32,000 nt of DNA from positions 1,950,001-1,982,000 of the forward strand of contig NZ_RSDW01000001.1 of assembly GCF_003945235.1 (NCBI RefSeq), in the 5' to 3' direction. Position 1 is the first letter of the stretch, and the number at the start of each line of letters is the position of its first letter. Of the stretch, positions 13,848 through 26,756 are shown in pieces. The position numbers and the translations under genes are program-made. The notes under the pieces are model-generated. The model worked only from the letters and a program-made list of their open reading frames with translations, did not search any database and was not told the DNA's origin. This stretch comes from Edaphobacter aggregans. GTDB lineage: Bacteria; Acidobacteriota; Terriglobia; Terriglobales; Acidobacteriaceae.

Positions 13848-15308
13848 TCAAGCGTTATAAGTCGAAGACGAGACCCGTCCCCCACGCCCAGTCCAGTTCG
13901 TGTGGAAGAACTCACCCCGAGGCTTGTCCACGCGCTCGTAAGTATGCGCGCCGAAGAAGTCCCGCTGCGCCTGTAGCAGATTCGCCGGCAACCGCTCCGT
14001 CCTGTATCCATCATAGAAAGCCAGCGCAGTAGAAAACGCAGGCATAGGCACGCCAATCTCAATTGCATGAATGACAGCCTTGCGCCACGACCACCCATAC
14101 TTATTCAACGCACTCGAGAAGAAGTCATCCAACAGCAAATTCTGCAGCTTCGGATTCTTATCGAACGCCGCCTTGATATTCCCCAGGAACACGCTGCGAA
14201 TAATGCAGCCGCCACGCCACATCAGCGCGATGCCGCCCATATTCAACTCCCAGTTCTGCTCCTTCTCCACGGCGCGCAGCAACATGTATCCCTGCGCGTA
14301 GCTCACCATCTTCGAGCAATACAACGCCCGCCGAACGTCCTCGATAAACTCCCTCTTCTCCGAAATCGTCAGCGCCTTCTTCGGCCCCTCTAGCACCTTC
14401 GAAGCAGCAACGCGCTCATCCTTCAACGCCGACAGGCACCGCGCAAACACACTCTCGCCAATCAGCGTCACAGGCTGTCCCAGATCAAGCGCCGAAATCG
14501 CGGTCCACTTGCCCGTTCCCTTCTGTCCAGCCGTATCCAGAATCTTGTCGATCATCGGCTGACCATCGTCGTCCTTCTTGGCAAAGATCTCCGCCGTAAT
14601 CTCGATCAGATAGCTATCCAGTTCGCCCTTATTCCACTCCGCAAACATCTCGGCGAACTCGTCGGCGCTCAGCCCCAACCCATCCTTCAGCAACTGATAG
14701 GCCTCACAGATCAGCTGAATATCGCCATACTCAATACCATTGTGAACCATCTTCACGTAGTGGCCCGCACCATCCTCACCCACCCAGTCGCAGCAAGGCG
14801 TGCCATCTTCAACCTTCGCCGCGATCGCTTGAAAGATCTCCTTCACATGCGGCCACGCAGCAGGATTCCCACCCGGCATAATCGAAGGACCAAACCGCGC
14901 GCCCTCTTCGCCACCTGAAACACCCGTGCCAATAAACAGAATTCCCTTCTCCGCCAACTCCTTCGTCCGACGATTCGTATCGGTAAACAGCGAGTTCCCA
15001 CCATCAATCAGGATGTCGCCCTTCTCGAGATACGGCAGCACATGCTCAATCGTCTGATCGACCACATCGCCCGCCTTCACCATCAGCATCACGCGCCGCG
15101 GAGACTTCAGCAATCCGCAAAGCTCCTCAGCCGAGTGCGCGCCAACCACCTGCGTCCCTTTAGCCTCATTGTTGATAAACTCATCGACCTTCGCAACCGT
15201 CCGGTTGAACACCGCCACCTTGTATCCATGGTCGTTCATGTTCAAGACCAGGTTCTGCCCCATCACGGCCAATCCAATCAATCCAATATCGCAAGTTGCT
15301 TCAGCCAT
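13848..15308 (-). CDS. gnd: NADP-dependent decarboxylating 6-phosphogluconate dehydrogenase, 486 aa
   Basis: The product is MAEATCDIGLIGLAVMGQNLVLNMNDHGYKVAVFNRT..., with GNSLFTDT, GTGVSGGEEGARFGPSIMPGG, KMVHNGIEYGDIQLI and RDFFGAHTYERVD. The start is set to ATG 15308 (GGAGA 7 nt upstream), which removes 12 spurious track codons. Confidence 0.95.
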   Translation of the reverse strand: MAEATCDIGLIGLAVMGQNLVLNMNDHGYKVAVFNRTVAKVDEFINNEAKGTQVVGAHSAEELCGLLKSPRRVMLMVKAGDVVDQTIEHVLPYLEKGDILIDGGNSLFTDTNRRTKELAEKGILFIGTGVSGGEEGARFGPSIMPGGNPAAWPHVKEIFQAIAAKVEDGTPCCDWVGEDGAGHYVKMVHNGIEYGDIQLICEAYQLLKDGLGLSADEFAEMFAEWNKGELDSYLIEITAEIFAKKDDDGQPMIDKILDTAGQKGTGKWTAISALDLGQPVTLIGESVFARCLSALKDERVAASKVLEGPKKALTISEKREFIEDVRRALYCSKMVSYAQGYMLLRAVEKEQNWELNMGGIALMWRGGCIIRSVFLGNIKAAFDKNPKLQNLLLDDFFSSALNKYGWSWRKAVIHAIEIGVPMPAFSTALAFYDGYRTERLPANLLQAQRDFFGAHTYERVDKPRGEFFHTNWTGRGGRVSSSTYNA

Positions 15309-15461
15309 CTCAAATCTCCAGACGCGTCCTTCAAGAGCACGCAAAAATATGCATCGCTCGCAGCCGATTCATCACAGAAAAAAAGTGGTCAAACCACGAG
15401 AGATTTTTCTATCACACCAGAGGAACGTTAAGATAGGTAGTTACCCCGCCAACATCCCGTG

Positions 15462-15522: not shown

Positions 15523-18500
15523 CTAGAAGGTAAGTCGTCCACCCAACTGGACCAACCGTGGGAAGCCCAGCGTACCGGTGATCTTTCCGGCAGTCGAGCT
15601 ATCCGCGGCTAGATTTGGACCATTGAACTGCGGCGTGTTGAAGGCATTCAAAGCCTCCGCGCGGAACTCAGCATTGACCCGCTCGGTGACATGGAAGCTC
15701 TTGTTGAGCGACAGGTCGAAGTTCGCATACCCCGGCCCATAGCAATTCAAAGTACGTGGTGAATTGCCGTAGCTTCCCGCCGGCGTCGTACTAAAGGCTG
15801 CCGGATTGAAGTAAGCATTCAAACGGTCTTGCGGGCGTCCCGAATAGCAGGGGTTAACTCCGGGCACCAGCGAAGGACGCGTACCCAGGTTGCCGAATGC
15901 AGAGTTGGAGTTAGTCGTTTGCGAGATCGGCAAAGGAGCGCCATCCTGAATGATCATGATGTTGTTGAATGTCCATCCTCCAACGGCAAGATCCATCCAA
16001 CGATTGGCTCCACTCAGGAACTGTTTACCGTGACCGAAGGGCAGTTCATACGTCAGCGCCAACGTTGTCCGCTTCGGAATATTGTTGATCGAACGCGCGT
16101 ATTCCGCGTGAATGTTGTTTACGTCCTGAGCGCCATTGTTATTTGAAATCAGCGGATTCAAGGTACTGCTCGCGCCCCACAGATTGTCCCAATTCGAAGC
16201 CCAGGTAAAGGCTCCGAGAACCGTAAGACCATTGGAGAAGAGTTTCTGGACCTTGACGTTCAGCGCGTTGAAGTTTGTGATGCCATCGCTCACCGAATCG
16301 GTGATCGTAGTGAATTGCGGGAAGGGACGCAGCGATTGATTGTACGGCTGATTCGCGCTGCTCCATGCACCCGTGCCGGCAAACTTGAACGGCACTTTGT
16401 TCGTGAGCGCTGCATTCCCTAGCGAGAAATAATTATCCGACAGTTGATTGATGTTCAAGCTGTTCGGCTGATTCCGTCCATGCCCGCCCACATAACCAAT
16501 CTTCAACGCAAAGCCATGAGGCAGCTCTTGTTGAATATCGGCCGAGTAGGACTGATAGAAAGGCGCCTTGCGCGCCTGATCGATCAGCGATAGCGAACTG
16601 CCAATGCTTGTGCTGAGCCCCAGCGTGTTGCCAGTAGGAGTCGTGCTCAAAGTTGGGAAAGGATTCGACAGGTTGATCGCCGGCACCCCGCTCTGCGACG
16701 GAATAACATTGGTCAATACATAGCCTGGCGCAAGTGATGCTGATCCACTGTAAACAAGCGGTTGGTAAAAGAGACCGTAGCCGCCGCGAACCACAGTCTG
16801 CGGCGTAATGGCATACGCGAATCCTGCACGTGGCGAAATCTTGTTTACAGTCTGTCCGGTCGCTGTCGGATAGCTGCCCTGGCCGGCAAACTCGATACCG
16901 CCTACAGCTTGGACAGTCGATCCAGCCACGGTGAAGGGCGTCGTACGGTCGAAGCCGACAGAGTAGCGATTGTGACGCTCATTCACACCGGGCTCGTGCT
17001 CATACCTGAGACCCAGATTCAGCGTCAGCTTCGGCGTCACACGCACATCATCCTGCCCATAGATCGCGTTGTATTGGGATGTAATCGCCAGCTGCGTGGG
17101 CACAACCAACGATCCTGATGTCGGGTACCCGAGCAACATATCGGCCGCCGTAGCCCCTGAGCTTCCCGACGTGCTCGAAACCCCCGAGTTCGTCAGCGTA
17201 CTGTCAAAGGCAAAGGTGCCGCTCGTGTTGCTCAAGCTGGTATACGTCAAGCTGATCGCACGAAAGACATATCCCGCCTTCAGACTATGTCTGCCCATGC
17301 TCTTTGCTATACCGGTAACAAAGTTCCGCGAAAAATAGACCGCGGGTCCGGAGTTGGATGTGCCCTGACTGGCCAGACCTGCATCGCCCGTGATCGCGGG
17401 AAAACCTGTCTTCGAAAGTGCTGCGAGATAGTTCGCCGGAAAACCAAGCGCTGCCTGGTTGAAACCTACGCTGATGTCCTTTGTGTCGTTCGGAAAACGA
17501 TTGAAACCAAAGCCGGCCGTCAAAATGGTTGTCGGATTCAGCGTAATCGTATTTTGTATACCGATAGCATCTACTTTCCGGTACAGCAGATACGACGAAG
17601 AGCTACCAGCAAAATTCTGCAAAGCGTTTCCGCCCGGTTCCTTCGAGCCATAGTGCATGTAGTAGAAATCTGCCAGCCAGCGTTCACCAAAAGAGTGAGT
17701 TACTTTTCCGACGAACTCGTCTGCGCGATCACCCAGCGTATCGCCGCCGTTGAAGTTGAAGCCGCCATAGGAGGTCACATTGGTATTTGGCTGTGGATAC
17801 ACCGCAAGAATCGCATATCCAACCGGGTTGATTCTGTTCGAAGGAATTTTGTTGAAGGGGAACGCCTGGCGTGTCGGGCTAAGCGGATCGTAAATGCACC
17901 GTCCGCTGATGCAGTTTCCGTTCGCGTCCGCTTGTCCAATCTCAGAGAAATCGCCCGCGTTCGCAATCGAAGTGCCGCGCTGCAGCAGCGTTGGCACAAC
18001 AAACGAATTCGCTGCCGTCAAAGGCGACCGCTGGCGATATCCCTCTCCCGTTATCCAGAAGAATGTTTTGTCCTTGCCGCCCAGAATCTTCGGCAGCGGT
18101 ATTGGGCCGCCGATCGATCCCGCGTAGGTATAGAACTCTGCCGCCCCGCGCGGTGTCGTCGGCTGAGTAACTCCGTTCGATGTATATGGCGTCCGATTGT
18201 TGAAGAATAGATTGGCACCCCAGTTTGTCTGCCGCGTCTGCCCCTGCAGCACCCCATGCAACGCGCTGGACCCCGAACGCAACGTCGTGTTGAACATGCC
18301 GCCGCTCGTGCGCCCAATCTCCGCGTCATAGGTATTTGCCTGCACCTTGACCTCTTGCACCGATTCGATCGACGGAATGATCACCGCTCGATTGCTGAAG
18401 TCCGTAATCGGAATGCCATCCACCGCATAGTTATTCGAGCTCAGTGGTGCGCCCGCAATCGAAATCGTTGATGATCCGCTCTGATCCTGGAAACGAACGA

Positions 18501-19023
18501 AACGCGGATCACCCACCGCTGTCACATTGTTATCCAGCTTCGAAAACAGAAATGGATTACGTCCTGGATTCGGCAGATTCTGCAGCTTCTGCGAGTCAAT
18601 CAATTGTCCATTGAAGGAAGTCCCGTTATTCACAATCGGCTCGGCCGCTGTTACTTCCACACTCTGGCTCATCGAACCGAGCTCTAGCCTGACATCCAAG
18701 GGGATCGTATTTCCCGCATCCACCCGGATGCCCTTGGACTCTGATTTCTTAAACCCATCGGTCGTCACCGTGACCGTGTAAACCCCCGGCGCAACTGCGC
18801 TGAACACATACTCGCCTGCGCCATTGCTCGTCGTAGTGCGGATGATCTTCGTATCTTCCGCTGTCAGCGAGATCGTCGCATTGGTTACGCTCGCACCCTG
18901 AACATCGGTGACCATGCCGCGCAAGGCTCCATAGTTCGATTGCGCTAATGCACTCGTAGCTGCCGTCACCACCATTGCAACCAGTACGAGAACGCCATAC
19001 AACTTCTTATTCAAGAAATGCAT
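15523..19023 (-). CDS. TonB-dependent outer-membrane receptor with an N-terminal carboxypeptidase-regulatory-like domain, 1166 aa
   Basis: The start is ATG 19023 (GGAGG 7 nt upstream), giving the signal peptide MHFLNKKLYGVLVLVAMVVTAATSALAQ. The CarboxypepD_reg-like block is GMVTDVQGASVTNATISLTAEDT..GEYVFSAVAPGVYTVTVTTDGFKK. Plug-like and long beta-barrel regions follow, and the C-terminus ..RLVQLGGRLTF ends in the usual terminal Phe. The 36 upstream track codons were dropped. Confidence 0.9.
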   Translation of the reverse strand: MHFLNKKLYGVLVLVAMVVTAATSALAQSNYGALRGMVTDVQGASVTNATISLTAEDTKIIRTTTSNGAGEYVFSAVAPGVYTVTVTTDGFKKSESKGIRVDAGNTIPLDVRLELGSMSQSVEVTAAEPIVNNGTSFNGQLIDSQKLQNLPNPGRNPFLFSKLDNNVTAVGDPRFVRFQDQSGSSTISIAGAPLSSNNYAVDGIPITDFSNRAVIIPSIESVQEVKVQANTYDAEIGRTSGGMFNTTLRSGSSALHGVLQGQTRQTNWGANLFFNNRTPYTSNGVTQPTTPRGAAEFYTYAGSIGGPIPLPKILGGKDKTFFWITGEGYRQRSPLTAANSFVVPTLLQRGTSIANAGDFSEIGQADANGNCISGRCIYDPLSPTRQAFPFNKIPSNRINPVGYAILAVYPQPNTNVTSYGGFNFNGGDTLGDRADEFVGKVTHSFGERWLADFYYMHYGSKEPGGNALQNFAGSSSSYLLYRKVDAIGIQNTITLNPTTILTAGFGFNRFPNDTKDISVGFNQAALGFPANYLAALSKTGFPAITGDAGLASQGTSNSGPAVYFSRNFVTGIAKSMGRHSLKAGYVFRAISLTYTSLSNTSGTFAFDSTLTNSGVSSTSGSSGATAADMLLGYPTSGSLVVPTQLAITSQYNAIYGQDDVRVTPKLTLNLGLRYEHEPGVNERHNRYSVGFDRTTPFTVAGSTVQAVGGIEFAGQGSYPTATGQTVNKISPRAGFAYAITPQTVVRGGYGLFYQPLVYSGSASLAPGYVLTNVIPSQSGVPAINLSNPFPTLSTTPTGNTLGLSTSIGSSLSLIDQARKAPFYQSYSADIQQELPHGFALKIGYVGGHGRNQPNSLNINQLSDNYFSLGNAALTNKVPFKFAGTGAWSSANQPYNQSLRPFPQFTTITDSVSDGITNFNALNVKVQKLFSNGLTVLGAFTWASNWDNLWGASSTLNPLISNNNGAQDVNNIHAEYARSINNIPKRTTLALTYELPFGHGKQFLSGANRWMDLAVGGWTFNNIMIIQDGAPLPISQTTNSNSAFGNLGTRPSLVPGVNPCYSGRPQDRLNAYFNPAAFSTTPAGSYGNSPRTLNCYGPGYANFDLSLNKSFHVTERVNAEFRAEALNAFNTPQFNGPNLAADSSTAGKITGTLGFPRLVQLGGRLTF

Positions 19024-19773
19024 AATGCAGCCTCCAACGGTATGTAGTAGGTGCTTCCTACTCAAGAGACACCTATAGGTAGCAGCCTGGGTCACAGGCT
19101 CGCGGGTGTAAGTAAAATTGCCTAAATACAAGACAGAATGCGACTAAGTCGTAGATACACTTCAGCTAGGTCGCTGAAAGTAACGTCCTTACCGATCGGC
19201 AGATACACCTCACCGTCGGCCTTTTCAGACTCATTCAATTTCTTTCAAACTAACAAAGACATTTGGTCTACAGCTGCTGAATCTCTGCGATCTGCTCTCC
19301 GGCAAAACCAGCCGAAGTCAACGGTCAGGGCGACAAGCAAATTGAACTTACGAGATACCGTGAATACAGATCCGGCGAGTGCCTTCTCTGTCCACCTGCT
19401 TCTGAAACCCGCCAACGGAGGGAGCTAAATACACTTTCGGTTAAGAGGCCCGATAATTCTCTTCAGCCTCACTGACGTGAGAAATAGCTTTTTTGATGAT
19501 GGATCCGAGCCTAGCCGAGTGTAAAGATCGTGTCAATAGAAATCTGCAAGATTATTTCGCTCAATCGCTTAATAACCGCGCCAATACAAGACTTTCTCTT
19601 AGTCATGATTCAATTTTCTAATCAGTAAATCTCTAAATTTACCCGCCCCTCAACTAGAAATTGAGTTACAGTATCTTCAAGTTCCCCCACAAATATCTTG
19701 TTAACAAAAACTTTAGGCCCACAGCTTTAGTCATAACTCAATCTATCCGCCTCTTACTCGAAGGAGCTCCTCC

Positions 19774-20994
19774 ATGCATTTGCCGAAGACATCATCGTCC
19801 GTCTCTCGCCGTTCCTTCATGCGACTGGCAGGCGTCGCCGCATCCATGCCGATCCTCACGGAAGCCCACTTCGCCTGGGCCGCGCAGCAGGCCCCCGGAG
19901 CAGCAGCCGCAGCGCCTGCTCGCCGCGTGCGACAAGCCATGCCCGCAGACGCCGTACTCATCAACGCCAACGAGAATCCCCTCGGCCCATGTAAAGCGGC
20001 CTGCGAAGCCATCGCATCCATCGCACCCAAAGGCGGCCGCTACGACATTGACGGCGAGACCGACAAACTAATCAAGACCTTCGCCTCACAAAACGGCCTC
20101 AAAGAAAACTACATCGCCGTATACGCCGGTTCTTCCGAACCACTTCACTACTCAGTCCTCGCCTTCACCTCTCCCACCAAAGGCTTCGTCACTGCCGATC
20201 CCTCTTACGAAGCAGGCATGCGCGCCGCACAGGTCGCCAAAGCAAAAATCTCCAAGGTCCCTCTCAAGCCCGACTACTCGCACGACGTCAAGGCCATGAT
20301 CGCCGCTGATCCCAACGCCGGCGTCTTCTACATCTGCAACCCCAACAATCCCACCGGCACCATCACCTCCAAAGCCGACATCCTCTGGGCGCTCGAGAAC
20401 AAGCCCAAGGGCTCCATCCTCCTCGTCGACGAGGCCTACATCCATCTCTCCGACGCCGAAAACGTAGTCGACCAGGTAGCAGCCGACAAGGACATCATCA
20501 TCCTTCGCACCTTCTCGAAGATCTACGGCATGGCCGGCATTCGTTGCGGCTTCGCGCTCGGCCGCCCCGATCTTCTCGCCAAGCTCCAGCCCTTCGGCCA
20601 GAACGCGATGCCGATCACCGGCTCTGCCGCCGCCAACGTCAGCCTCCTCGATACCGATCTCGTGCCCACGCGCAAAAAAATCATCGCCGACACGCGCAAC
20701 GACACCTTCGCCTTCCTCAAGGCAAACAACTACAAGTTCATCCCATCGCAATCCAACTGCTTCATGATCGACACCGGTCGCAACGGCCAGCAGGTCATCG
20801 CAGCCATGCGCGCCAAGAACGTCTACATCGGTCGCACCTGGCCCATCTGGCCTAACACCGTCCGCGTCAGCGTCGGCACACCCGCCGAGATGGCGAAGTT
20901 CAAAGTAGCCTTCAAAGAGGTCATGGACTCTGCTCCCACGGCAGCCTCGTTGCACGACCCCTTCGCCGACATCACCTTCCCTCAACTCTCCTAG
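19774..20994 (+). CDS. Class I/II PLP-dependent aminotransferase of the histidinol-phosphate aminotransferase (HisC-like) family with an N-terminal twin-arginine (Tat) signal, 406 aa
   Basis: AAGGAG lies 7 nt upstream. The signal is MHLPKTSSSVSRRSFMRLAGVAASMPILTEAHFAWA|AQ (SRRxFxRL, hydrophobic core, AxA). The mature part has INANENPLGP, YAGSSEPL, NPNNPTG, LLVDEAYIHL and RTFSKIYGMAGIRCGF (the Lys of SK is the PLP lysine). Confidence 0.85.
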   Translation: MHLPKTSSSVSRRSFMRLAGVAASMPILTEAHFAWAAQQAPGAAAAAPARRVRQAMPADAVLINANENPLGPCKAACEAIASIAPKGGRYDIDGETDKLIKTFASQNGLKENYIAVYAGSSEPLHYSVLAFTSPTKGFVTADPSYEAGMRAAQVAKAKISKVPLKPDYSHDVKAMIAADPNAGVFYICNPNNPTGTITSKADILWALENKPKGSILLVDEAYIHLSDAENVVDQVAADKDIIILRTFSKIYGMAGIRCGFALGRPDLLAKLQPFGQNAMPITGSAAANVSLLDTDLVPTRKKIIADTRNDTFAFLKANNYKFIPSQSNCFMIDTGRNGQQVIAAMRAKNVYIGRTWPIWPNTVRVSVGTPAEMAKFKVAFKEVMDSAPTAASLHDPFADITFPQLS

Positions 20995-21015
20995 GTAAGC
21001 AACCCATAAAACAAC

Positions 21016-21050
21016 AGACCCCGGACAAGTACCGGGGTCTTTCTCTTTCC
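21016..21050 (+). terminator. Intrinsic terminator after the aminotransferase gene
   Basis: AGACCCCGG-ACAAGTA-CCGGGGTCT (a perfect 9-bp stem) is followed by TTCTCTTTCC. Confidence 0.7.
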
Positions 21051-21104
21051 TATACCTTTATCCTGGTAGCCAGTCCTGCACTCTCAACACAGAAAGGCCT
21101 CTGC

Positions 21105-22361
21105 TTGCCCATCTCTCATCGCACCTTCGCACTTGCCGCCATTGCCTCACTCGCTCTTCCCCTCGCGTCCCAGCAGCCTCACAAAGTCACGCAGGAAGAG
21201 GTTGACCGCATCACCCGCGACGCCATCCTCATCGACACCCACAACGACGTCACCTCCCGCACCGTCGCCGGCTACGACATCGCCACTCCCAACAAATCCG
21301 GCGAGACCGATCTCCCGCGCATGAAAGGCTACCTCGGCGCCGAGTTCTTCGCCGTCTACGTCGGAGCTGAATACGTCAAGGACAATCACTCCGCCAACCG
21401 CACTCTCCAGATGATCGACACCGTCCGCACCGATATCATCGCCGCTCACCCCAACGACTTCGTCTTCGCCACCACCGCCGACGACATCGTCCGCGCCCAC
21501 AACGAACACAAGATCGCCGCCCTCATGGGCATCGAAGGCGGCCACGCCATCGAAGATTCCCTCCGCCTCCTCCGCGACTACTACGCCCTCGGCGTCCGCT
21601 ACATGACTCTCACCCACTTCAACACCAACAACTGGGCCGACTCGCAAGGCGACATCGACAACCCGAAGATCGCCCACCACAACGGCCTCACGCCATTCGG
21701 CAAAGACGTCGTCCGCGAGATGAACCGACTCGGCATGATGGTCGACATCTCCCACACCGCCGACCCAACCTTCTACGCCGCGCTCGAGACCAGCACCGCA
21801 CCCATCATTGCCTCGCACTCCGGCTGCCGCGCCGTCTCCAGCTACACCCGCAACATGACCGACGATATGATCAAAGCCCTCGCCGCAAAAGGCGGAGTAG
21901 TCCAGATCAACTTCGGTTGCGACTTCCTCTCCCAGCGCTACTTCGACGACGCCAAGCCCCTTGAAGCCTCCATGCGCGAACAATACATGGCCGCAATGAA
22001 GATCGAAGACCCCGCTGCAAAGAATGCCGCCATTGAAAAGCTCCGTGCGGACTTCACCGCCAAGCTCCCGCCCGCGACTCTCGCCGACGTAGTAGCCCAG
22101 ATCGACCACGCTGTAAAAGTAGGTGGCATCGACCACGTAGGTATCGGCACCGACTTTGACGGAGTAGGCTGCGTCCCACCCGACCTCAACTCCTACAACA
22201 AATTCCCCGCCCTAATCCGCGCACTACTCGAAAAAGGCTACACCGCCGAAGACATCAAAAAAATCTACGGAGGCAATCTTCTCCGCGTCATGCGAGCCGT
22301 AGAACAACGCGCCCGCGAACTCCAATCAACTCCAGCACTCCACACCGAAATAACAAAGTAA
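21105..22361 (+). CDS. Membrane-dipeptidase family (peptidase M19) zinc dipeptidase with a Sec-type signal peptide, 418 aa
   Basis: The signal is MPISHRTFALAAIASLALPLASQQ. Its start codon is TTG at 21105 and there is no in-frame ATG in the signal region, so the exact start is uncertain. M19 blocks are LIDTHNDVTSR, DLPRMKGYLGAEFFAVYV, GIEGGHAIEDSLRLLRDYYALGVRYMTLTH, MMVDISHTAD, IASHSG, VVQINF and HVGIGTDFDG. Confidence 0.85.
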   Translation: MPISHRTFALAAIASLALPLASQQPHKVTQEEVDRITRDAILIDTHNDVTSRTVAGYDIATPNKSGETDLPRMKGYLGAEFFAVYVGAEYVKDNHSANRTLQMIDTVRTDIIAAHPNDFVFATTADDIVRAHNEHKIAALMGIEGGHAIEDSLRLLRDYYALGVRYMTLTHFNTNNWADSQGDIDNPKIAHHNGLTPFGKDVVREMNRLGMMVDISHTADPTFYAALETSTAPIIASHSGCRAVSSYTRNMTDDMIKALAAKGGVVQINFGCDFLSQRYFDDAKPLEASMREQYMAAMKIEDPAAKNAAIEKLRADFTAKLPPATLADVVAQIDHAVKVGGIDHVGIGTDFDGVGCVPPDLNSYNKFPALIRALLEKGYTAEDIKKIYGGNLLRVMRAVEQRARELQSTPALHTEITK

Positions 22362-22373
22362 GAACGGCAAAAA

Positions 22374-22401
22374 CTAAGGGGACCGATTAAGGTCCCCTTA
22401 G
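22374..22401. terminator. Hairpin terminator between the convergent dipeptidase and RidA genes
   Basis: The perfect 11-bp stem is CTAAGGGGACC-GATTAA-GGTCCCCTTAG. AAAAA on its left gives a T-tract for the minus-strand (RidA) transcript. The plus-side tail is weak. Confidence 0.65.
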
Positions 22402-22422
22402 TCAAATCTGAACTACCCCAAC

Positions 22423-22908
22423 TTACTTACTCTTCACCGCAATCACTTCAACTTCAAGCAGCGCCCATGGAGCAGCAAGCGCAGCAACCTGAAACGCCGA
22501 GCGCGCAGGCTTATTCGGCTGATCCTTCGTTCCGAAGAACTTCACATACTCCGACTGCATCCCCGCAAAGTCCAGCTTGCCTGTCTTCGGATCAGGCCCC
22601 AGGAACACGGTCATCTTCACCACATTGTTCATATCCAGACCCTGCTCCTTCAGCGCAGCCTGAATCTTCGCGAACACACTCGCAGCCTGAGCCTTCGTGT
22701 CACCATAATCCGCCTGTGTTCCCTTCGCTGGGTCAGCCGGAGTAACTGGCGAAGCCAATTGTCCGCTCAGGTAAAACGTATCGCCCGCCCAAACACCCTT
22801 TGCAATCGGGCTCTTGTCATCCTGAATATGCTTCACCACAACCTGAGCCTGAACCGCACATGCAGAGGCAACCATCACCGCCGCCATCAAGACATTCTTT
22901 AGCTTCAT
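22423..22908 (-). CDS. RidA/YjgF/TdcF-family reactive-intermediate (imine) deaminase with a Sec signal peptide, 161 aa
   Basis: I prefer ATG 22908 (GGAG 6 nt upstream) over 22926. The signal is MKLKNVLMAAVMVASACAVQA|Q. The RidA-type core has DTFYLSGQLA, KAQAASVFAKIQAALKEQGLDMNNVVKMTVFL, PARSAFQVAAL and LLEVEVIAV. Confidence 0.85.
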   Translation of the reverse strand: MKLKNVLMAAVMVASACAVQAQVVVKHIQDDKSPIAKGVWAGDTFYLSGQLASPVTPADPAKGTQADYGDTKAQAASVFAKIQAALKEQGLDMNNVVKMTVFLGPDPKTGKLDFAGMQSEYVKFFGTKDQPNKPARSAFQVAALAAPWALLEVEVIAVKSK

Positions 22909-22943
22909 CACACGCTCCAGTTTCATAGTTAGATAAAAAGGAA

Positions 22944-24527
22944 CTAGCCCCGCACCGTGCCACTCACTCCGCCAGCCAGCTTAGCAGCCTTCACCTTATC
23001 GCAGATCATCTGCACTGCACGCTTTCCACTCAGTGCAGCGCCCTCCTGCCAGCCGACAACATGGCTCGCCGTATCGCCCGCAAAGTAGATCGGCCCATCG
23101 GCCTGAATGATCGTGTTGTATCCCTCTGGTCCGCCGCCATAGGCGCGAATCCACGATCCCTCATTCCACTTCACCCGCCGCCATCCGCAGAACACAGGAT
23201 TCTTCAGCTCCTTCCCATGCCCGGGGTGCAGCTTCTCAATCGACCCACGCGACGCAGCAAACTTCTCTTCCAGCGACATCTTCCAGAACGGCGTGTTCTG
23301 TTCCTCCGTATACCCGGCCACAACAATCCCAGTCGGATGCATCAACCGGCTCGACGGATACCACACCGGACTCGGCCCCTGCTGCACAAACGACAGGCCG
23401 CCATAGATGTTGTAATCCTGCTCCCAGAATCGCCGGCTCTCCCACGCAACCTTGTAGCTACCCGCAGGAGTACTCTCATTCACCACCTTGGCGAACTCGG
23501 GCGAAAGATCGTTTGGCACCTTCTTCAGCATCTCGAACGGCATCGCAATCACGCAATAGTTCGCCTCAAGCTGTTTCTCGACGCCCTTCTGCGTGTAGCT
23601 CACCTTCACGCCATTGGCGGTCTTGCGAATCGCTGTCACCGGTGAGCTGAACTGCACCACCGGCCCCAGAGCCTTGGCAAACGCATAAGGAATACGATCC
23701 ATGCCCCCAACCGGCTGCATCATCGTCGCCTGCCAGTCCCAGGTTTCTTCGTACAACATGCCGCCCCAGAAAGCCTCATCGAGCAGCGTGTGCATATCCA
23801 TCGGCACTTCGACCTCAGACACCTGAGTCCCCGCGCCCGGCGGAGTCTTGAACCCAGCCCGATCCGACCCAACATACTTGCCCGTCTTATCCAGCGGCCC
23901 ATAAATCCGCAGGAACGTCTTCATCCGCTCTCTGTCTTCCGCCGAAATATCCTGATCCAGCGCACCCTGCGCGATGCACTTCGACAGCAACTCCGACACA
24001 TGCCCCCGCGTGTCGTTGATCGCCTTGCGCTGCGGCACAGCCGCTCCGCCATTGGCATTATCATTCTGCAACAGCGTCGATCGCGACGTATTGATCTCCA
24101 CTTCCAGCGGAACACCAAGCTCCCGACAATAATTAAGCATCGTCCAGTGAGTGCTCGGCAAACGCGCCGGCCCGAGGTTCTGGTAGTTGCCTTCTTCCCA
24201 ATTAATCGTCTGGGTCGTTCCATCGGTGAACTCAACCTTCGTCCCATTCCGACCCGACCAGTTACGCCCACCCGGGCGCTCTCTCGCCTCGAGCAGCGTT
24301 ACATCGTACCCCAGCTTCTTCAGCTCATAGGCCGTAGTGAGTCCGCCGATTCCACCGCCCAGCACCGCGACCTTCACGCCCTTGCCCGAGCCTGCCGCCG
24401 CCTCAATCGCCTTCACGGCCTGGCCCTGCATTGGCATCAGCCCCAGCGACTGCATGGTTGCAAACGCAGCGCTGTATCCACCAGCCTGCCCGACACGCAT
24501 TAGAAAGTCACGTCTGGAAATCCCCAT
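22944..24527 (-). CDS. Flavin-dependent amine / L-amino-acid oxidase family protein with a Tat signal, 527 aa
   Basis: The track start (24560) is TTG. ATG 24527 (AAGGAG upstream) gives MGISRRDFLMRVGQAGGYSAAFATMQSL..., with a twin-Arg motif. The FAD fold is KVAVLGGGIGGLTTAYELKKLGYDVTLLEARERPGGR, and the C-terminal FAD block is IYFAGDTASHVVGWQEGAALSG. Confidence 0.85.
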   Translation of the reverse strand: MGISRRDFLMRVGQAGGYSAAFATMQSLGLMPMQGQAVKAIEAAAGSGKGVKVAVLGGGIGGLTTAYELKKLGYDVTLLEARERPGGRNWSGRNGTKVEFTDGTTQTINWEEGNYQNLGPARLPSTHWTMLNYCRELGVPLEVEINTSRSTLLQNDNANGGAAVPQRKAINDTRGHVSELLSKCIAQGALDQDISAEDRERMKTFLRIYGPLDKTGKYVGSDRAGFKTPPGAGTQVSEVEVPMDMHTLLDEAFWGGMLYEETWDWQATMMQPVGGMDRIPYAFAKALGPVVQFSSPVTAIRKTANGVKVSYTQKGVEKQLEANYCVIAMPFEMLKKVPNDLSPEFAKVVNESTPAGSYKVAWESRRFWEQDYNIYGGLSFVQQGPSPVWYPSSRLMHPTGIVVAGYTEEQNTPFWKMSLEEKFAASRGSIEKLHPGHGKELKNPVFCGWRRVKWNEGSWIRAYGGGPEGYNTIIQADGPIYFAGDTASHVVGWQEGAALSGKRAVQMICDKVKAAKLAGGVSGTVRG

Positions 24528-24572
24528 ACGAACAAACACTCCTTCTGAAGATGAATTCAACGCTCATTGCCA

Positions 24573-24635
24573 CTACGGAATACACCGAAGACCCGAACTA
24601 AGAGAAGTACTGCCTACGAATACACGAAGACCGCG
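24573..24635. repeat. Direct repeat pair upstream of the oxidase gene
   Basis: CTACGGAATACACCGAAGACC (24573-24593) and CTACGAATACACGAAGACC (24614-24632) start 41 bp apart. They lie 46-108 nt upstream of the oxidase ATG. Confidence 0.6.
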
Positions 24636-24921
24636 TATCCACTGGAGTGCTGAAAGGAGTTACAAGTTTTCTAAGAAGATGTAGCTACTCTATCGCAAAA
24701 TTCAGTTGTGCGCTCCGGAAATTCCGGCAAGTTCACTTAGAAGCGGGCGATAGCTGTAAGACGATTAGAATGAAAAAAAGTTCACGCCAGCACCAGCGCT
24801 AACCATCTATATCTGCAAGATAGCAATGGGAAATAATTGTTCTAATAACGCTGATTGAAAAACTCTATCGCAGAAAAATTCCACTCAGTTCGCCACTCGT
24901 CACAAAACCTGCACTGAATCG

Positions 24922-26121
24922 CTAAGCCCCGATCGTCACCAACTCCGGTTCGCTCACCGTCCGCTTCAACTGCCCACAAGCAGCATAGATATCCCGCCCC
25001 CGAGGCCGCCGGATATAAGTCGGCATCCCACCGTCAATCAACATCTTCTGAAACACCGCCACACTCTCTGGATCAGGCTGCGTATAAGCAATCCCCGGCC
25101 CAGGATTCCACACAATCAGATTCACCTTCGCGTGCATGCCCTTCAACAGAGCCAGCACCTCGCGAGCATGCTCCGGCTGATCGTTCACCCCACCCAGCAG
25201 CACATACTCAAACGTCACCCAATCCCGCTTGCCCATCGGAATCGTCCTCACCGCATCCAGCAACTGAGCAATATTCCACTTTCGCGTAATCGGCATGATC
25301 TGCTCGCGCACAACATCGTTCGAAGCATTCAAACTCAACGCCAGCTTTGGCCTCAACGTCTCCTGCGCGAACCGCCGGATCGCCGGCTCAATCCCGCTCG
25401 TCGAAACCGTCATCCGCGACTCCGGAATCCCGATCCCCTCCACCAGCAACCGCACCGAAGCAATAAACGCCTCGTAATTCAAAAACGGCTCGCCCATCCC
25501 CATAAACACCAGGTTGATGCGATCCTTCCCAATCTTCACCCCATGCCGATTCAGCACCGCCGCCACCTGCCCGGCGATCTCGCCCGCCGTAAGGTTCCGC
25601 TTAATCCCCAGCTTCGCCGTCAGGCAAAACTGACAGTTCACCGCACACCCAACTTGGCTCGAAATACAAATCGTCGCCCGCCGATACCCCGCCGCAGCCA
25701 GCGCCCCCCAATTCCGCTTATCAACCTTATCGACCGGGCGAGACCCCTCATTCCCCTCACGCCCCTCCAACACTTCTTCCTCAAGAGCGGCCTCAGTCCC
25801 ATCCCCCCGCTCGCCGCCATCGCCATCCGGCATCCATACGGTCTCCACGGTCTCGCCATCGGCCATCCGCATCAGATAGCGCTCGGTGCCATCCACCGAC
25901 ACCGCCGCCTGCACAATCTCCGGCATCCCCACCACAGCACCCTCGTCCGTCAACCGAGCCCGCAACTCCGCCGGCAGCACCGTCATCTCCTCCACCGAAG
26001 ACACCCGCTGCTTATAAAGAGCCTCCCAAACCTGCCGCGCCCGATAAAGCTTCTGCCCCAGCGCACCCATGCGCTCCATCAACTCCGGCAGACTCATCCC
26101 AAACAACGCAGCACGTTCCAT
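24922..26121 (-). CDS. rlmN: Radical-SAM 23S rRNA/tRNA adenine-C2 methyltransferase RlmN, 400 aa
   Basis: The start is ATG 26121 (MERAALFGMSLPELMERMG..), 2 nt after the cupin stop. Key blocks are SSQVGCAVNCQFCLT (CxxxCxxC), FMGMGEPFLNY, VSTSGI, NLIVWNP and ACGQL. Confidence 0.95.
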   Translation of the reverse strand: MERAALFGMSLPELMERMGALGQKLYRARQVWEALYKQRVSSVEEMTVLPAELRARLTDEGAVVGMPEIVQAAVSVDGTERYLMRMADGETVETVWMPDGDGGERGDGTEAALEEEVLEGREGNEGSRPVDKVDKRNWGALAAAGYRRATICISSQVGCAVNCQFCLTAKLGIKRNLTAGEIAGQVAAVLNRHGVKIGKDRINLVFMGMGEPFLNYEAFIASVRLLVEGIGIPESRMTVSTSGIEPAIRRFAQETLRPKLALSLNASNDVVREQIMPITRKWNIAQLLDAVRTIPMGKRDWVTFEYVLLGGVNDQPEHAREVLALLKGMHAKVNLIVWNPGPGIAYTQPDPESVAVFQKMLIDGGMPTYIRRPRGRDIYAACGQLKRTVSEPELVTIGA

Positions 26122-26123
26122 AC

Positions 26124-26528
26124 TTAAAGAATAAATGCACGATACTGATCGTCCGTAACCTGTTCCATCCATTCAACAACTTTGCCGTCCAGCTTCTCCT
26201 GAATGGCAATATGCGTCATGGCGGTAGTTGGTGTAGCCCCATGCCAGTGCTTCTCCCCCGGCGAGAACCAAACCACATCTCCCGGCCGGATCTCTTCAAT
26301 CGATCCGCCATCCCGCTGTGCCCAGCCCAAGCCTCCCGTAACGATCAAAGTCTGCCCCAACGGATGCGTATGCCACGCCGTCCGAGCGCCAGGCTCAAAG
26401 GTAACGCTCGCACCCTGTACGAACGCCGGATCTGGCGCCTGAAAAAGTGGATCGATCCGTACCGTCCCCGTGAACCAGTCGGCGGAACCTTTGACAGAGG
26501 CTTGCGAACCGCAGCGTTTAATCTCCAT
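26124..26528 (-). CDS. Cupin-domain protein (cupin_2 type), 134 aa
   Basis: The metal-site-like pattern is [24 protein letters not shown]...[19 protein letters not shown] 26528 has GAGGA 6 nt upstream, whereas ATG 26534 abuts the GAGGA. The gene is tightly coupled to rlmN. Confidence 0.8.
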
Positions 26529-26671: not shown

Positions 26672-26756
26672 GCGAAAGTGGCGAAATTGGCAGACGCACC
26701 AGACTTAGGATCTGGCGGAGCAATCCGTGGGGGTTCAAGTCCCCCCTTTCGCACCA
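26672..26756 (+). tRNA. tRNA-Leu (anticodon TAG), class II with a long variable arm, CCA encoded
   Basis: The sequence is GCGAAAGTGGCGAAATTGGCAGACGCACCAGACTTAGGATCTGGCGGAGCAATCCGTGGGGGTTCAAGTCCCCCCTTTCGCACCA. The acceptor stem is GCGAAAG/CTTTCGC. The anticodon stem is CCAGA/TCTGG with loop CTTAGGA. The T arm is GGGGG-TTCAAGT-CCCCC. A TACAAT box lies at 26635-26640. Confidence 0.95.

Follow-up and report, generated by a model that had tools for sequence, protein, structure and literature searches.

A candidate Acidobacteriaceae locus for periplasmic amino-acid deamination centred on an exported L-amino-acid oxidase and a Rid3 protein

Gene products of the locus

The complete 6.15 Mb chromosome of Edaphobacter aggregans (NZ_RSDW01000001.1) was analysed over a stretch of 32,000 nucleotides, positions 1,950,001-1,982,000, which is referred to here as the window. 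Between window positions 15523 and 24527 lie five genes, encoding a TonB-dependent-receptor-like protein, an aminotransferase (AT1), an M19 dipeptidase, a protein of the Rid3 subfamily and an oxidase dependent on flavin adenine dinucleotide (FAD), with the housekeeping genes gnd and rlmN on either side (Table 1). All four enzymes carry export signals that are conserved in their orthologs, and the neighbourhood recurs in relatives assigned to Edaphobacter, Granulicella, Tunturiibacter and Terriglobus, all of them Acidobacteriaceae. The oxidase and Rid3 genes form its conserved core, and the locus would serve to deaminate amino acids outside the cytoplasm.

Table 1. Features of the oxidase-Rid3 locus and its flanks, in window coordinates.
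Feature	Position	Strand	Remarks
gnd, housekeeping flank	13848-15344		
TonB-dependent-receptor-like gene	15523-19023	-	1166 aa; ATG start giving MHFLNKK
Divergent intergenic region, receptor/aminotransferase	19024-19773		750 bp, A+T-rich
Pair of conserved blocks, non-coding	19274-19296, 19335-19355		between 257 and 332 nt ahead of the receptor start
Aminotransferase gene AT1	19774-20994	+	406 aa; GAAGGAG ribosome site
Terminator-like hairpin after the aminotransferase gene	21016-21040	+	9-bp stem with 7 G-C pairs, then TTCTCTTTCC
M19 dipeptidase gene	21105-22361	+	418 aa; TTG start
Hairpin between the convergent M19 and Rid3 genes	22372-22403		stem of 13 bp (-25.8 kcal/mol, z -4.1) with a U run after it
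Rid3 gene	22423-22908	-	161 aa; Sec signal
FAD L-amino-acid oxidase gene	22944-24527	-	527 aa; Tat signal
Oxidase upstream region	24528-24921	-	conserved block at about 24650-24705 (seen on aligning five close relatives)
Terminator-like hairpin of the upstream rlmN gene	24784-24799	-	from hairpin scan
rlmN, housekeeping flank	24922-26172		

By far the closest solved relative of the oxidase is the L-amino-acid oxidase of Rhodococcus opacus (roLAAO, structure 2JAE), matched over residues 52-512 with an E-value of 3.6e-87. The protein also matches the Amino_oxidase family PF01593 (130 bits), and a FAD-binding motif of the DAO/NAD_binding_8 type is found at residues 63-109. In the alignment Arg122, Tyr406, Trp459, Trp493 and Asp264 occupy the positions of Arg84, Tyr371, Trp426, Trp467 and Asp227 of roLAAO, and they are invariant or nearly so among 46 orthologs. 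Two further positions differ, Ala466 of roLAAO being glycine in the window protein and Tyr226 being tryptophan. The residues of the roLAAO substrate pocket have been named, with Arg84 binding the carboxylate of the substrate (PMC10900486). Since this carboxylate-binding arginine and the pocket residues are kept, the gene product is assigned as a Rhodococcus-type L-amino-acid oxidase and not as an amine oxidase. Oxidation would be predicted to depend on O2 and to release hydrogen peroxide (H2O2), and it is possible that the enzyme works as a dehydrogenase with another electron acceptor. The same genome has a second oxidase gene at 5916295-5917890 (L155:6295-7890, minus strand), whose product has a twin-arginine start and is about 47-49% identical to that of the window. 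It is followed by an open reading frame of 133 residues (L155:5857-6258) with a lipoprotein-like N-terminus and no match in Pfam, and no Rid gene is present there.

The best solved relatives of the Rid protein are PSPTO3006 (9BKA, E 1.8e-29) and PFL1385 (9BKC, E 2.3e-25), both of which are listed as Rid3 proteins (PMC5619798), with structures of RidA and YabJ far behind at about 1e-12. An identity as archetypal RidA was rejected, the score against TIGR00004 being 67 bits where the cut-off is 106. The catalytic arginine of Rid3, Arg136 within a PARS motif and equivalent to Arg105 of RidA, is invariant in 46 orthologs. From these matches the protein is a member of the Rid3 subfamily, with a predicted imine/enamine deaminase activity. 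Rid3 proteins hydrolyse imines made by oxidases (PMC5619798, PMC4433059), and PSPTO3006 and PFL1385 do so with those that a venom L-amino-acid oxidase produces from Leu, Gln, Phe, Met and His (PMC5619798). The clustering of Rid genes with those of FAD amine oxidases has also been noted (PMC4433059). A prediction of the complex between oxidase residues 40-527 and Rid3 residues 22-161, run with their own alignments, scored 0.00, which is under the mark and weighs neither way.

On its family scores the aminotransferase is a member of the PtaA/PRK09105 subfamily of periplasmic transaminases and a putative pyridoxal phosphate (PLP) enzyme. It scores 552 bits against the NCBIfam model NF006580 (PRK09105; cut-off 444) and 132 bits against PF00155, with the HisC models far lower, and the PLP lysine motif S-K-I-Y-G-M-A-G-I-R is visible in the translation. 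The second-best model is the PtaA equivalog NF051461, at 416 bits and under its cut-off of 500. Together with the absence of pyoverdine and peptide-synthetase genes from the window, this led us to reject an identity as the PtaA of pyoverdine synthesis. PtaA itself is a periplasmic transaminase exported by the twin-arginine translocation (Tat) route, with homologs also in species that make no pyoverdine (PMC6206403).

The M19 protein matches PF01244 with 347 bits, and its closest solved structure is Sco3058 (3ID7, E 2.8e-72). His46, Asp48, Glu144, His217, His238, Arg249 and Asp350 correspond to His20, Asp22, Glu125, His198, His219, Arg230 and Asp288 of human renal dipeptidase, so that the ligands of the binuclear zinc site (equivalents of His20, Asp22, Glu125, His198 and His219) and the substrate-binding residues (equivalents of Arg230 and Asp288) are all retained. 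As far as these residues tell, the protein is a catalytically intact zinc dipeptidase of the active Sco3058/renal type. The non-hydrolytic M19 proteins of the PvdM class are recognised by loss of the zinc site, with the bridging glutamate replaced by a hydrophobic residue (PMC9305348), and membership of this class was rejected because the bridging glutamate, Glu144, and all other ligands are present. The TTG start of the gene has parallels among the orthologs, which also begin with TTG or GTG.

The receptor has an architecture that is typical of Acidobacteriota, with a CarboxypepD_reg domain (PF13620, 69 bits) and an OMP_b-brl_4 barrel (PF25183, 627 bits) following a signal for the general secretory (Sec) route. 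PF00593 is matched with 38 bits, and the plug domain gives a weak match at the expected place, 18.8 bits with a cut-off of 23.9. The barrel is clear, and the protein would be a TonB-dependent-receptor-like protein of the outer membrane.

An aminotransferase of the PtaA subfamily next to a receptor gene calls to mind the maturation of pyoverdine, in which PtaA, the M19-like PvdM and a TonB-dependent receptor take part, and periplasmic M19 homologs have been described beside TonB-dependent receptors (PMC9305348). The cluster might, then, tailor or recycle a secreted peptide-like metabolite such as a siderophore, or make 2-oxo-acid iron chelators as Proteus does. This seems to us very improbable: the M19 protein of the window keeps all its zinc ligands, unlike the PvdM class (PMC9305348), the aminotransferase falls short of the PtaA equivalog cut-off, and the window holds no peptide-synthetase gene. 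Moreover, no Fur-box-like site was found near the cluster genes, where the best candidate has 6-7 mismatches over 19 positions; the genome contains 32 sites with five or fewer.

Export was judged by the conservation of the N-terminal signals among orthologs. The oxidase starts MGISRRDFL, containing the motif S-R-R-D-F-L, and all 40 of the orthologs compared begin in the same manner (M-x-x-[ST]-R-R-x-F-L-like). In the aminotransferase the motif is SRRSFMR with an A-W-A site, and each of 11 orthologs has S-R-R-[STN]-F-[LMF]-R, a hydrophobic core and A-x-A. N-termini of the Sec type, with a short charged start and a hydrophobic core, are present in all the orthologs examined of the M19 protein (6/6) and of the Rid protein (34/34), with A-x-A or A-Q at the end of most. 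Compared with their cytoplasmic or mature solved relatives the four enzymes are extended at the N-terminus by 22-45 residues, and the genome encodes TatC (236 bits). Export of all five proteins is thus confirmed as far as sequence allows.

A preliminary description of this DNA, made from its letters alone, had the coordinates and order of all five genes right, and the AT-rich control region that it put at 750 bp has that length and a G+C fraction of 0.45. Its opinion that the export signals are real is upheld by their conservation in orthologs of the oxidase, aminotransferase, M19 and Rid3 proteins, which leaves the signals anything but unsupported. The division of routes that it saw is also found, with Tat signals on the two cofactor-carrying enzymes, the oxidase and the aminotransferase, and Sec signals on the others, the receptor included. 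From its wider assignment of an FAD amino-acid/amine oxidase the amino-acid side can be kept, as the counterparts of Arg84, Tyr371, Trp426 and Trp467 are in place and do not point to an enzyme specific for non-amino-acid amines. Two of its labels have to be replaced, the 'HisC-like' aminotransferase being of the PtaA/PRK09105 subfamily and the 'RidA' being Rid3.

Transcription units and upstream regions

The oxidase gene lies upstream of the Rid3 gene, with 35 nt from the stop codon of the first to the start codon of the second. As this gap is short and free of hairpins, the two are probably transcribed as one operon. The M19 and Rid3 genes converge on a hairpin that is probably a bidirectional terminator for both. 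The hairpin that follows the stop codon of the aminotransferase gene is G+C-rich, has a T-rich tail and lies 65 nt before the M19 gene; on account of this terminator-like element the aminotransferase and M19 genes are probably on separate transcripts.

The intergenic region between the receptor and aminotransferase genes has a G+C content of 45%, compared with about 57% for the window. Its two conserved blocks are kept even in loci where the receptor has just 57-65% identity, and may constitute the promoter or operator of the receptor gene. A small open reading frame within the blocks was rejected, as the reading frames shift from one block to the other. Nor is an RNA fold indicated there, RNAalifold giving -5.9 kcal/mol with no covariation, and a search of the whole window with Rfam gave no match in the intergenic region. 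The sole Rfam match in the window is a tRNA gene at 26672-26753.

In the region upstream of the oxidase gene, direct repeats, a palindrome and the word TGCGATAGAGT were considered as motifs that might be shared with the receptor/aminotransferase intergenic region, and were set aside as none of them recurs there. The genome has 78 occurrences of TGCGATAGAGT, close to what was estimated for chance. A sigma-54-like site upstream of the oxidase gene, assessed by eye in the alignment, was likewise rejected, its spacing being off by one and the GC element being missing in the window.

Recurrence of the neighbourhood in relatives

Two samples of genomes were compared, some genomes being common to both: an order-level sample of 151 genomes, from which 40 loci of about 20 kb were taken, and 80 species-level loci with 10-kb flanks from a genome collection. 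The oxidase was matched in 58 of the 151 genomes, a tally in which one unpublished genome (G031) is counted that contributed nothing else, including 30 of the 37 of the genus as well as several other genera. In a sister family of the same order (f2) it was found in 5 of 28 genomes, with no Rid3 match to the query used. The scan of the collection returned loci of the Acidobacteriaceae type exclusively, two of which come from bins labelled otherwise, as Rhodanobacteraceae (L119) and Candidatus Babeliales (L125).

A Rid3 gene directly follows the oxidase gene in 57 of the 80 species-level loci and in about 35 of the 40 loci of the order sample, where nearly all high-scoring Rid3 matches are in this position. 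Near the oxidase gene an orthologous receptor (at least 42% identity) was present at 21 of the 80 loci, the aminotransferase at 14 and the M19 gene at 11. On the oxidase tree the aminotransferase must have changed state at least 11 times, Rid3 at least 8 times, and M19 and the receptor at least 5 times each. From these counts and changes the oxidase-Rid3 pair is a conserved hub, with the receptor, aminotransferase and M19 genes as facultative but recurrent partners; there is no fixed four-enzyme cassette. The 'module' of the preliminary description, for which synteny across genomes had been proposed as a check, therefore survives in part. The genes do recur together in relatives, with the oxidase-Rid3 pair the steadiest element, while the complete set of five is confined to three genomes, those of the window and of two relatives at 96% (L072) and 88% (L078).

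The arrangement varies considerably. One locus (L119) has all but the receptor. In Terriglobus the oxidase, Rid3 and receptor genes follow one another in this order, all co-directional, and in other genera a second receptor family is encoded directly upstream of the oxidase gene. At several loci the aminotransferase gene adjoins the Rid3-oxidase pair and no receptor is present; elsewhere the aminotransferase gene lies upstream of the oxidase gene, or a receptor occurs without the aminotransferase.

The three partners differ in how firmly they are tied to the hub. The link of the aminotransferase is strong. The genome of the window has three copies of the PRK09105 type (AT1, AT2 and AT3), and in the aminotransferase tree the oxidase-linked copies form lineages of their own, the unlinked AT2 and AT3 with their orthologs falling in separate, long-branched clades; none of 500 shuffles clustered the oxidase-linked label as tightly. 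In four of five genomes lacking the aminotransferase at the locus an AT1-type copy was not found elsewhere. More distant relatives (42-52% identity) have neither an oxidase nor a Rid gene around them, and the seven distant representatives that were looked up lie on short contigs or in such contexts, so the link looks specific to Acidobacteriaceae among the contexts compared. For the receptor the link is moderate to strong. Receptor orthologs adjoining the Rid3-oxidase pair are 42-95% identical, and a receptor-like gene of any kind lies within 10 kb of the oxidase gene at 20 of 55 loci with full flanks, as against 17% of random 21.6-kb windows in the genome of E. aggregans, which has about 55-67 such genes. 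The link of the M19 gene is the weakest.

We favour the reading of this stretch as an accessory locus of the Acidobacteriaceae for periplasmic amino-acid deamination, in which the oxidase-Rid3 hub would work with three helpers to scavenge nitrogen, and would put its probability at about 0.55. A number of observations weigh against it. The genomes compared are related and do not represent independent samples. Most oxidase-Rid3 loci carry none of the three helpers, and the closest relative (L100, 98% oxidase identity) has the order oxidase-Rid3-M19-receptor-gnd, without the aminotransferase. In three of five genomes with no M19 gene at the locus, M19 orthologs of 76-78% identity are found elsewhere, away from these neighbours, and the paralogs in the genome of the window (AT2, AT3, M19b and LAAO2) are scattered through unrelated contexts with no clustering. 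The five genes are probably read as at least four transcripts, namely receptor, aminotransferase, M19 and oxidase-Rid3, and no motif was found that the sequence upstream of the oxidase gene has in common with the stretch between the receptor and aminotransferase genes. The cluster contains neither a regulator nor a transporter for ammonium or amino acids. There is also no peroxide-removing gene nearby, and H2O2 produced in the periplasm would be costly.

Several of these points would be accommodated if the oxidase-Rid3 operon alone were functional, and the receptor, aminotransferase and M19 protein were independent exported proteins encoded by chance in the variable DNA that separates gnd from Rid3. 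Separate transcription units bounded by terminators, the opposite orientation of the aminotransferase and M19 genes, the many loci without helpers, the 98% relative that lacks the aminotransferase, M19 orthologs located elsewhere, the failure to find a shared regulatory motif and the sheer number of receptor genes in the genome all agree with this explanation. We nevertheless regard it as unlikely. It does not readily account for an aminotransferase gene that has the oxidase gene as its neighbour on each of the two deep branches of the oxidase tree, in several arrangements and with at least 11 state changes, nor for the oxidase-linked aminotransferases being lineages of their own, with no such copy found in the rest of the genome where the locus is without one. 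Depending on the genus, the receptor next to the hub belongs to one or the other of two families, and each of the four enzymes is an exported member of a family whose proteins are mostly cytoplasmic; both facts sit better with a hub that acts together with its helpers.

The strand-tied base composition of the genes bears on how long they have been in place. Between 13848 and 26172 the GC skew at third codon positions is +0.4 to +0.7 for genes on the minus strand, with the exception of the receptor at just +0.09, and it is -0.57 for the aminotransferase and -0.71 for the M19 gene on the plus strand, the same strong bias as in their neighbours. This fits genes that have long resided in the orientation they now have better than it does a foreign insertion of very recent date, and for the aminotransferase it implies that the 98% relative probably lost its copy. 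Over the genome as a whole, the GC skew of 100-kb bins varies patchily from -0.27 to +0.30, and two clean replichores are not seen.

Other genes were noticed beside related loci. In one related genus (L060:5313-8259, and also L058, L068 and L069) genes for an MbnB/TglH-type enzyme, a DUF2063 protein, DoxX and an extracytoplasmic function (ECF) sigma factor, which we take to be bufferin-like peptide-metallophore genes, sit just upstream of an aminotransferase-Rid3-oxidase-receptor block, with MacB/FtsX genes downstream. Upstream of the oxidase gene at another locus (L032:12890-15862) is a gene for a 990-residue protein with an M14 carboxypeptidase domain, and at loci of the Tunturiibacter type (L036:232-6701) this position is taken by genes for a TetR regulator, two unknown proteins and another OMP_b-brl_4 barrel protein. 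A PtaA-family aminotransferase with 44% identity to that of the window is encoded next to a 100-residue CM_2 chorismate mutase at L174:8001-9650 (CP002865.1), possibly as part of a periplasmic route to aromatic amino acids that is unrelated to the oxidase locus.

A candidate route for nitrogen scavenging outside the cytoplasm

In the scheme that we favour, the receptor would probably bring peptides or other amino-acid-rich material across the outer membrane, and the Sec-exported M19 enzyme would free amino acids from dipeptides. The oxidase, exported by the Tat route already loaded with FAD, would convert L-amino acids to 2-imino acids and H2O2, and the Sec-exported Rid3 protein would turn the imino acids into 2-oxo acids and ammonium. 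The chemistry proposed for this pair draws on the published enzymology of both families (PMC4433059, PMC5619798, PMC10900486). The transaminase would move amino groups from amino acids that are poor substrates of the oxidase onto the 2-oxo acids made by it, and by doing so would regenerate its own PLP outside the cytoplasm, so that amino acids poorly handled by the oxidase would be deaminated too. The net yield would be ammonium and 2-oxo acids for uptake, amounting to nitrogen scavenging as carried out by LAO1/LAO2 in Chlamydomonas.

The part played by the transaminase in this scheme touches on a question raised for PtaA, whose cofactor must 'somehow' be regenerated in the periplasm by a mechanism that was left unexplained (PMC6206403). 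A periplasmic transdeamination cycle would offer an answer. The 2-oxo acids produced by the oxidase and Rid3 would re-oxidise the pyridoxamine form of the transaminase, amino acids that cannot be oxidised directly would pass their nitrogen to an oxidisable carrier, and peptides delivered by the receptor and cleaved by M19 would provide the feedstock. We put this coupling forward tentatively, as a possible elaboration of the locus.

An oxidase-Rid core of this kind has been described before. In Chlamydomonas, periplasmic LAO1 and LAO2/RIDA serve to scavenge nitrogen from amino acids and short peptides (PMC10805672); an L-amino-acid oxidase of this alga is also reported by Vallon 1993, as cited in PMC5053998. 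The similarity lies in an extracytoplasmic FAD oxidase that is encoded beside a Rid partner, and the release of ammonium, 2-oxo acids and H2O2 from external substrates seen there would by analogy be predicted here. The algal system differs in being eukaryotic and in having no transaminase, dipeptidase or outer-membrane receptor as partner. Its Rid partner is of the RidA type and a subunit of a complex, whereas the partner in the window is a Rid3 protein. A bacterial counterpart is the lao-cccA-ridA set of Gluconacetobacter diazotrophicus, in which a Rhodococcus-like oxidase with a Tat signal is co-transcribed with a Rid gene (PMC5053998), and lao and ridA co-occur in 19 genomes (PMC5053998). 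In contrast to the window, a cytochrome c gene stands between the oxidase and Rid genes of Gluconacetobacter, the function shown is the synthesis of auxin, and no aminotransferase, M19 or receptor is reported (PMC5053998). The suggestion in the preliminary description that the pathway was not a described one does not hold for this core, which is known from Chlamydomonas (PMC10805672) and Gluconacetobacter (PMC5053998).

The Gluconacetobacter genes, being needed for auxin production (PMC5053998), also suggest another purpose for the pair. The oxidase and Rid3 could convert tryptophan to indole-3-pyruvate on the way to auxin, or supply H2O2 against competitors, with the transaminase as a second route to the same oxo acids. 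LAO1 of Chlamydomonas makes indole-3-pyruvate (PMC10805672), and the record titles of many of the relatives name lichen, moss or rhizosphere samples. A role in signalling or antagonism seems quite improbable all the same, as the recurrent links with receptors and peptidases (M19, and the M14-domain protein elsewhere) are better matched to the supply of substrate, the periplasmic rather than secreted location would limit H2O2 as a weapon, and no downstream auxin genes are present in the window.

The single components have known counterparts as well. The oxidase of R. opacus shares the pocket residues and has an N-terminal twin-arginine signal (PMC5053998), but its host is Gram-positive and the literature searched records no Rid partner for it. 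PtaA of the fluorescent pseudomonads is alike in its PRK09105 subfamily, Tat signal and PLP fold, with action outside the cytoplasm predicted for the window protein in turn (PMC6206403). The window protein differs in its score, which is under the PtaA equivalog cut-off, and in its surroundings, which show no connection with pyoverdine and link it to an oxidase-Rid3 pair that could supply a 2-oxo acid as acceptor. PvdM and other periplasmic M19 homologs (PMC9305348) resemble the dipeptidase in having an M19 fold outside the cytoplasm and a receptor gene nearby; the PvdM class differs from it in having lost the zinc site and in being membrane-anchored and chaperone-like, where the window protein is similar to the active Sco3058 and renal dipeptidases. 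What is apparently new at the locus is not the core but what is added to it, the transaminase, receptor and dipeptidase. A periplasmic PtaA, and a periplasmic M19 protein beside TonB-dependent receptors, have been described separately in the context of pyoverdine (PMC6206403, PMC9305348). The literature searched did not yield an oxidase-Rid3 hub combined with a dedicated transaminase lineage of the PtaA family, an active exported M19 enzyme and a receptor.

The Acidobacteriaceae are among the most abundant bacteria of acidic, nitrogen-poor soils, peat, tundra and lichens, and their means of acquiring nitrogen are poorly known. If nitrogen scavenging by this locus is confirmed, these bacteria would gain ammonium from peptides without importing each amino acid, and would release 2-oxo acids and H2O2 to their surroundings. 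The oxidase and Rid3 protein are in addition candidate biocatalysts, since the Rhodococcus relative of the oxidase is used to make 2-oxo acids. The transdeamination cycle, if it operates, would account for periplasmic cofactor recycling by Tat-exported transaminases, by identifying the source of the amino acceptor, and would constitute a route for harvesting peptide nitrogen in abundant soil Acidobacteria.

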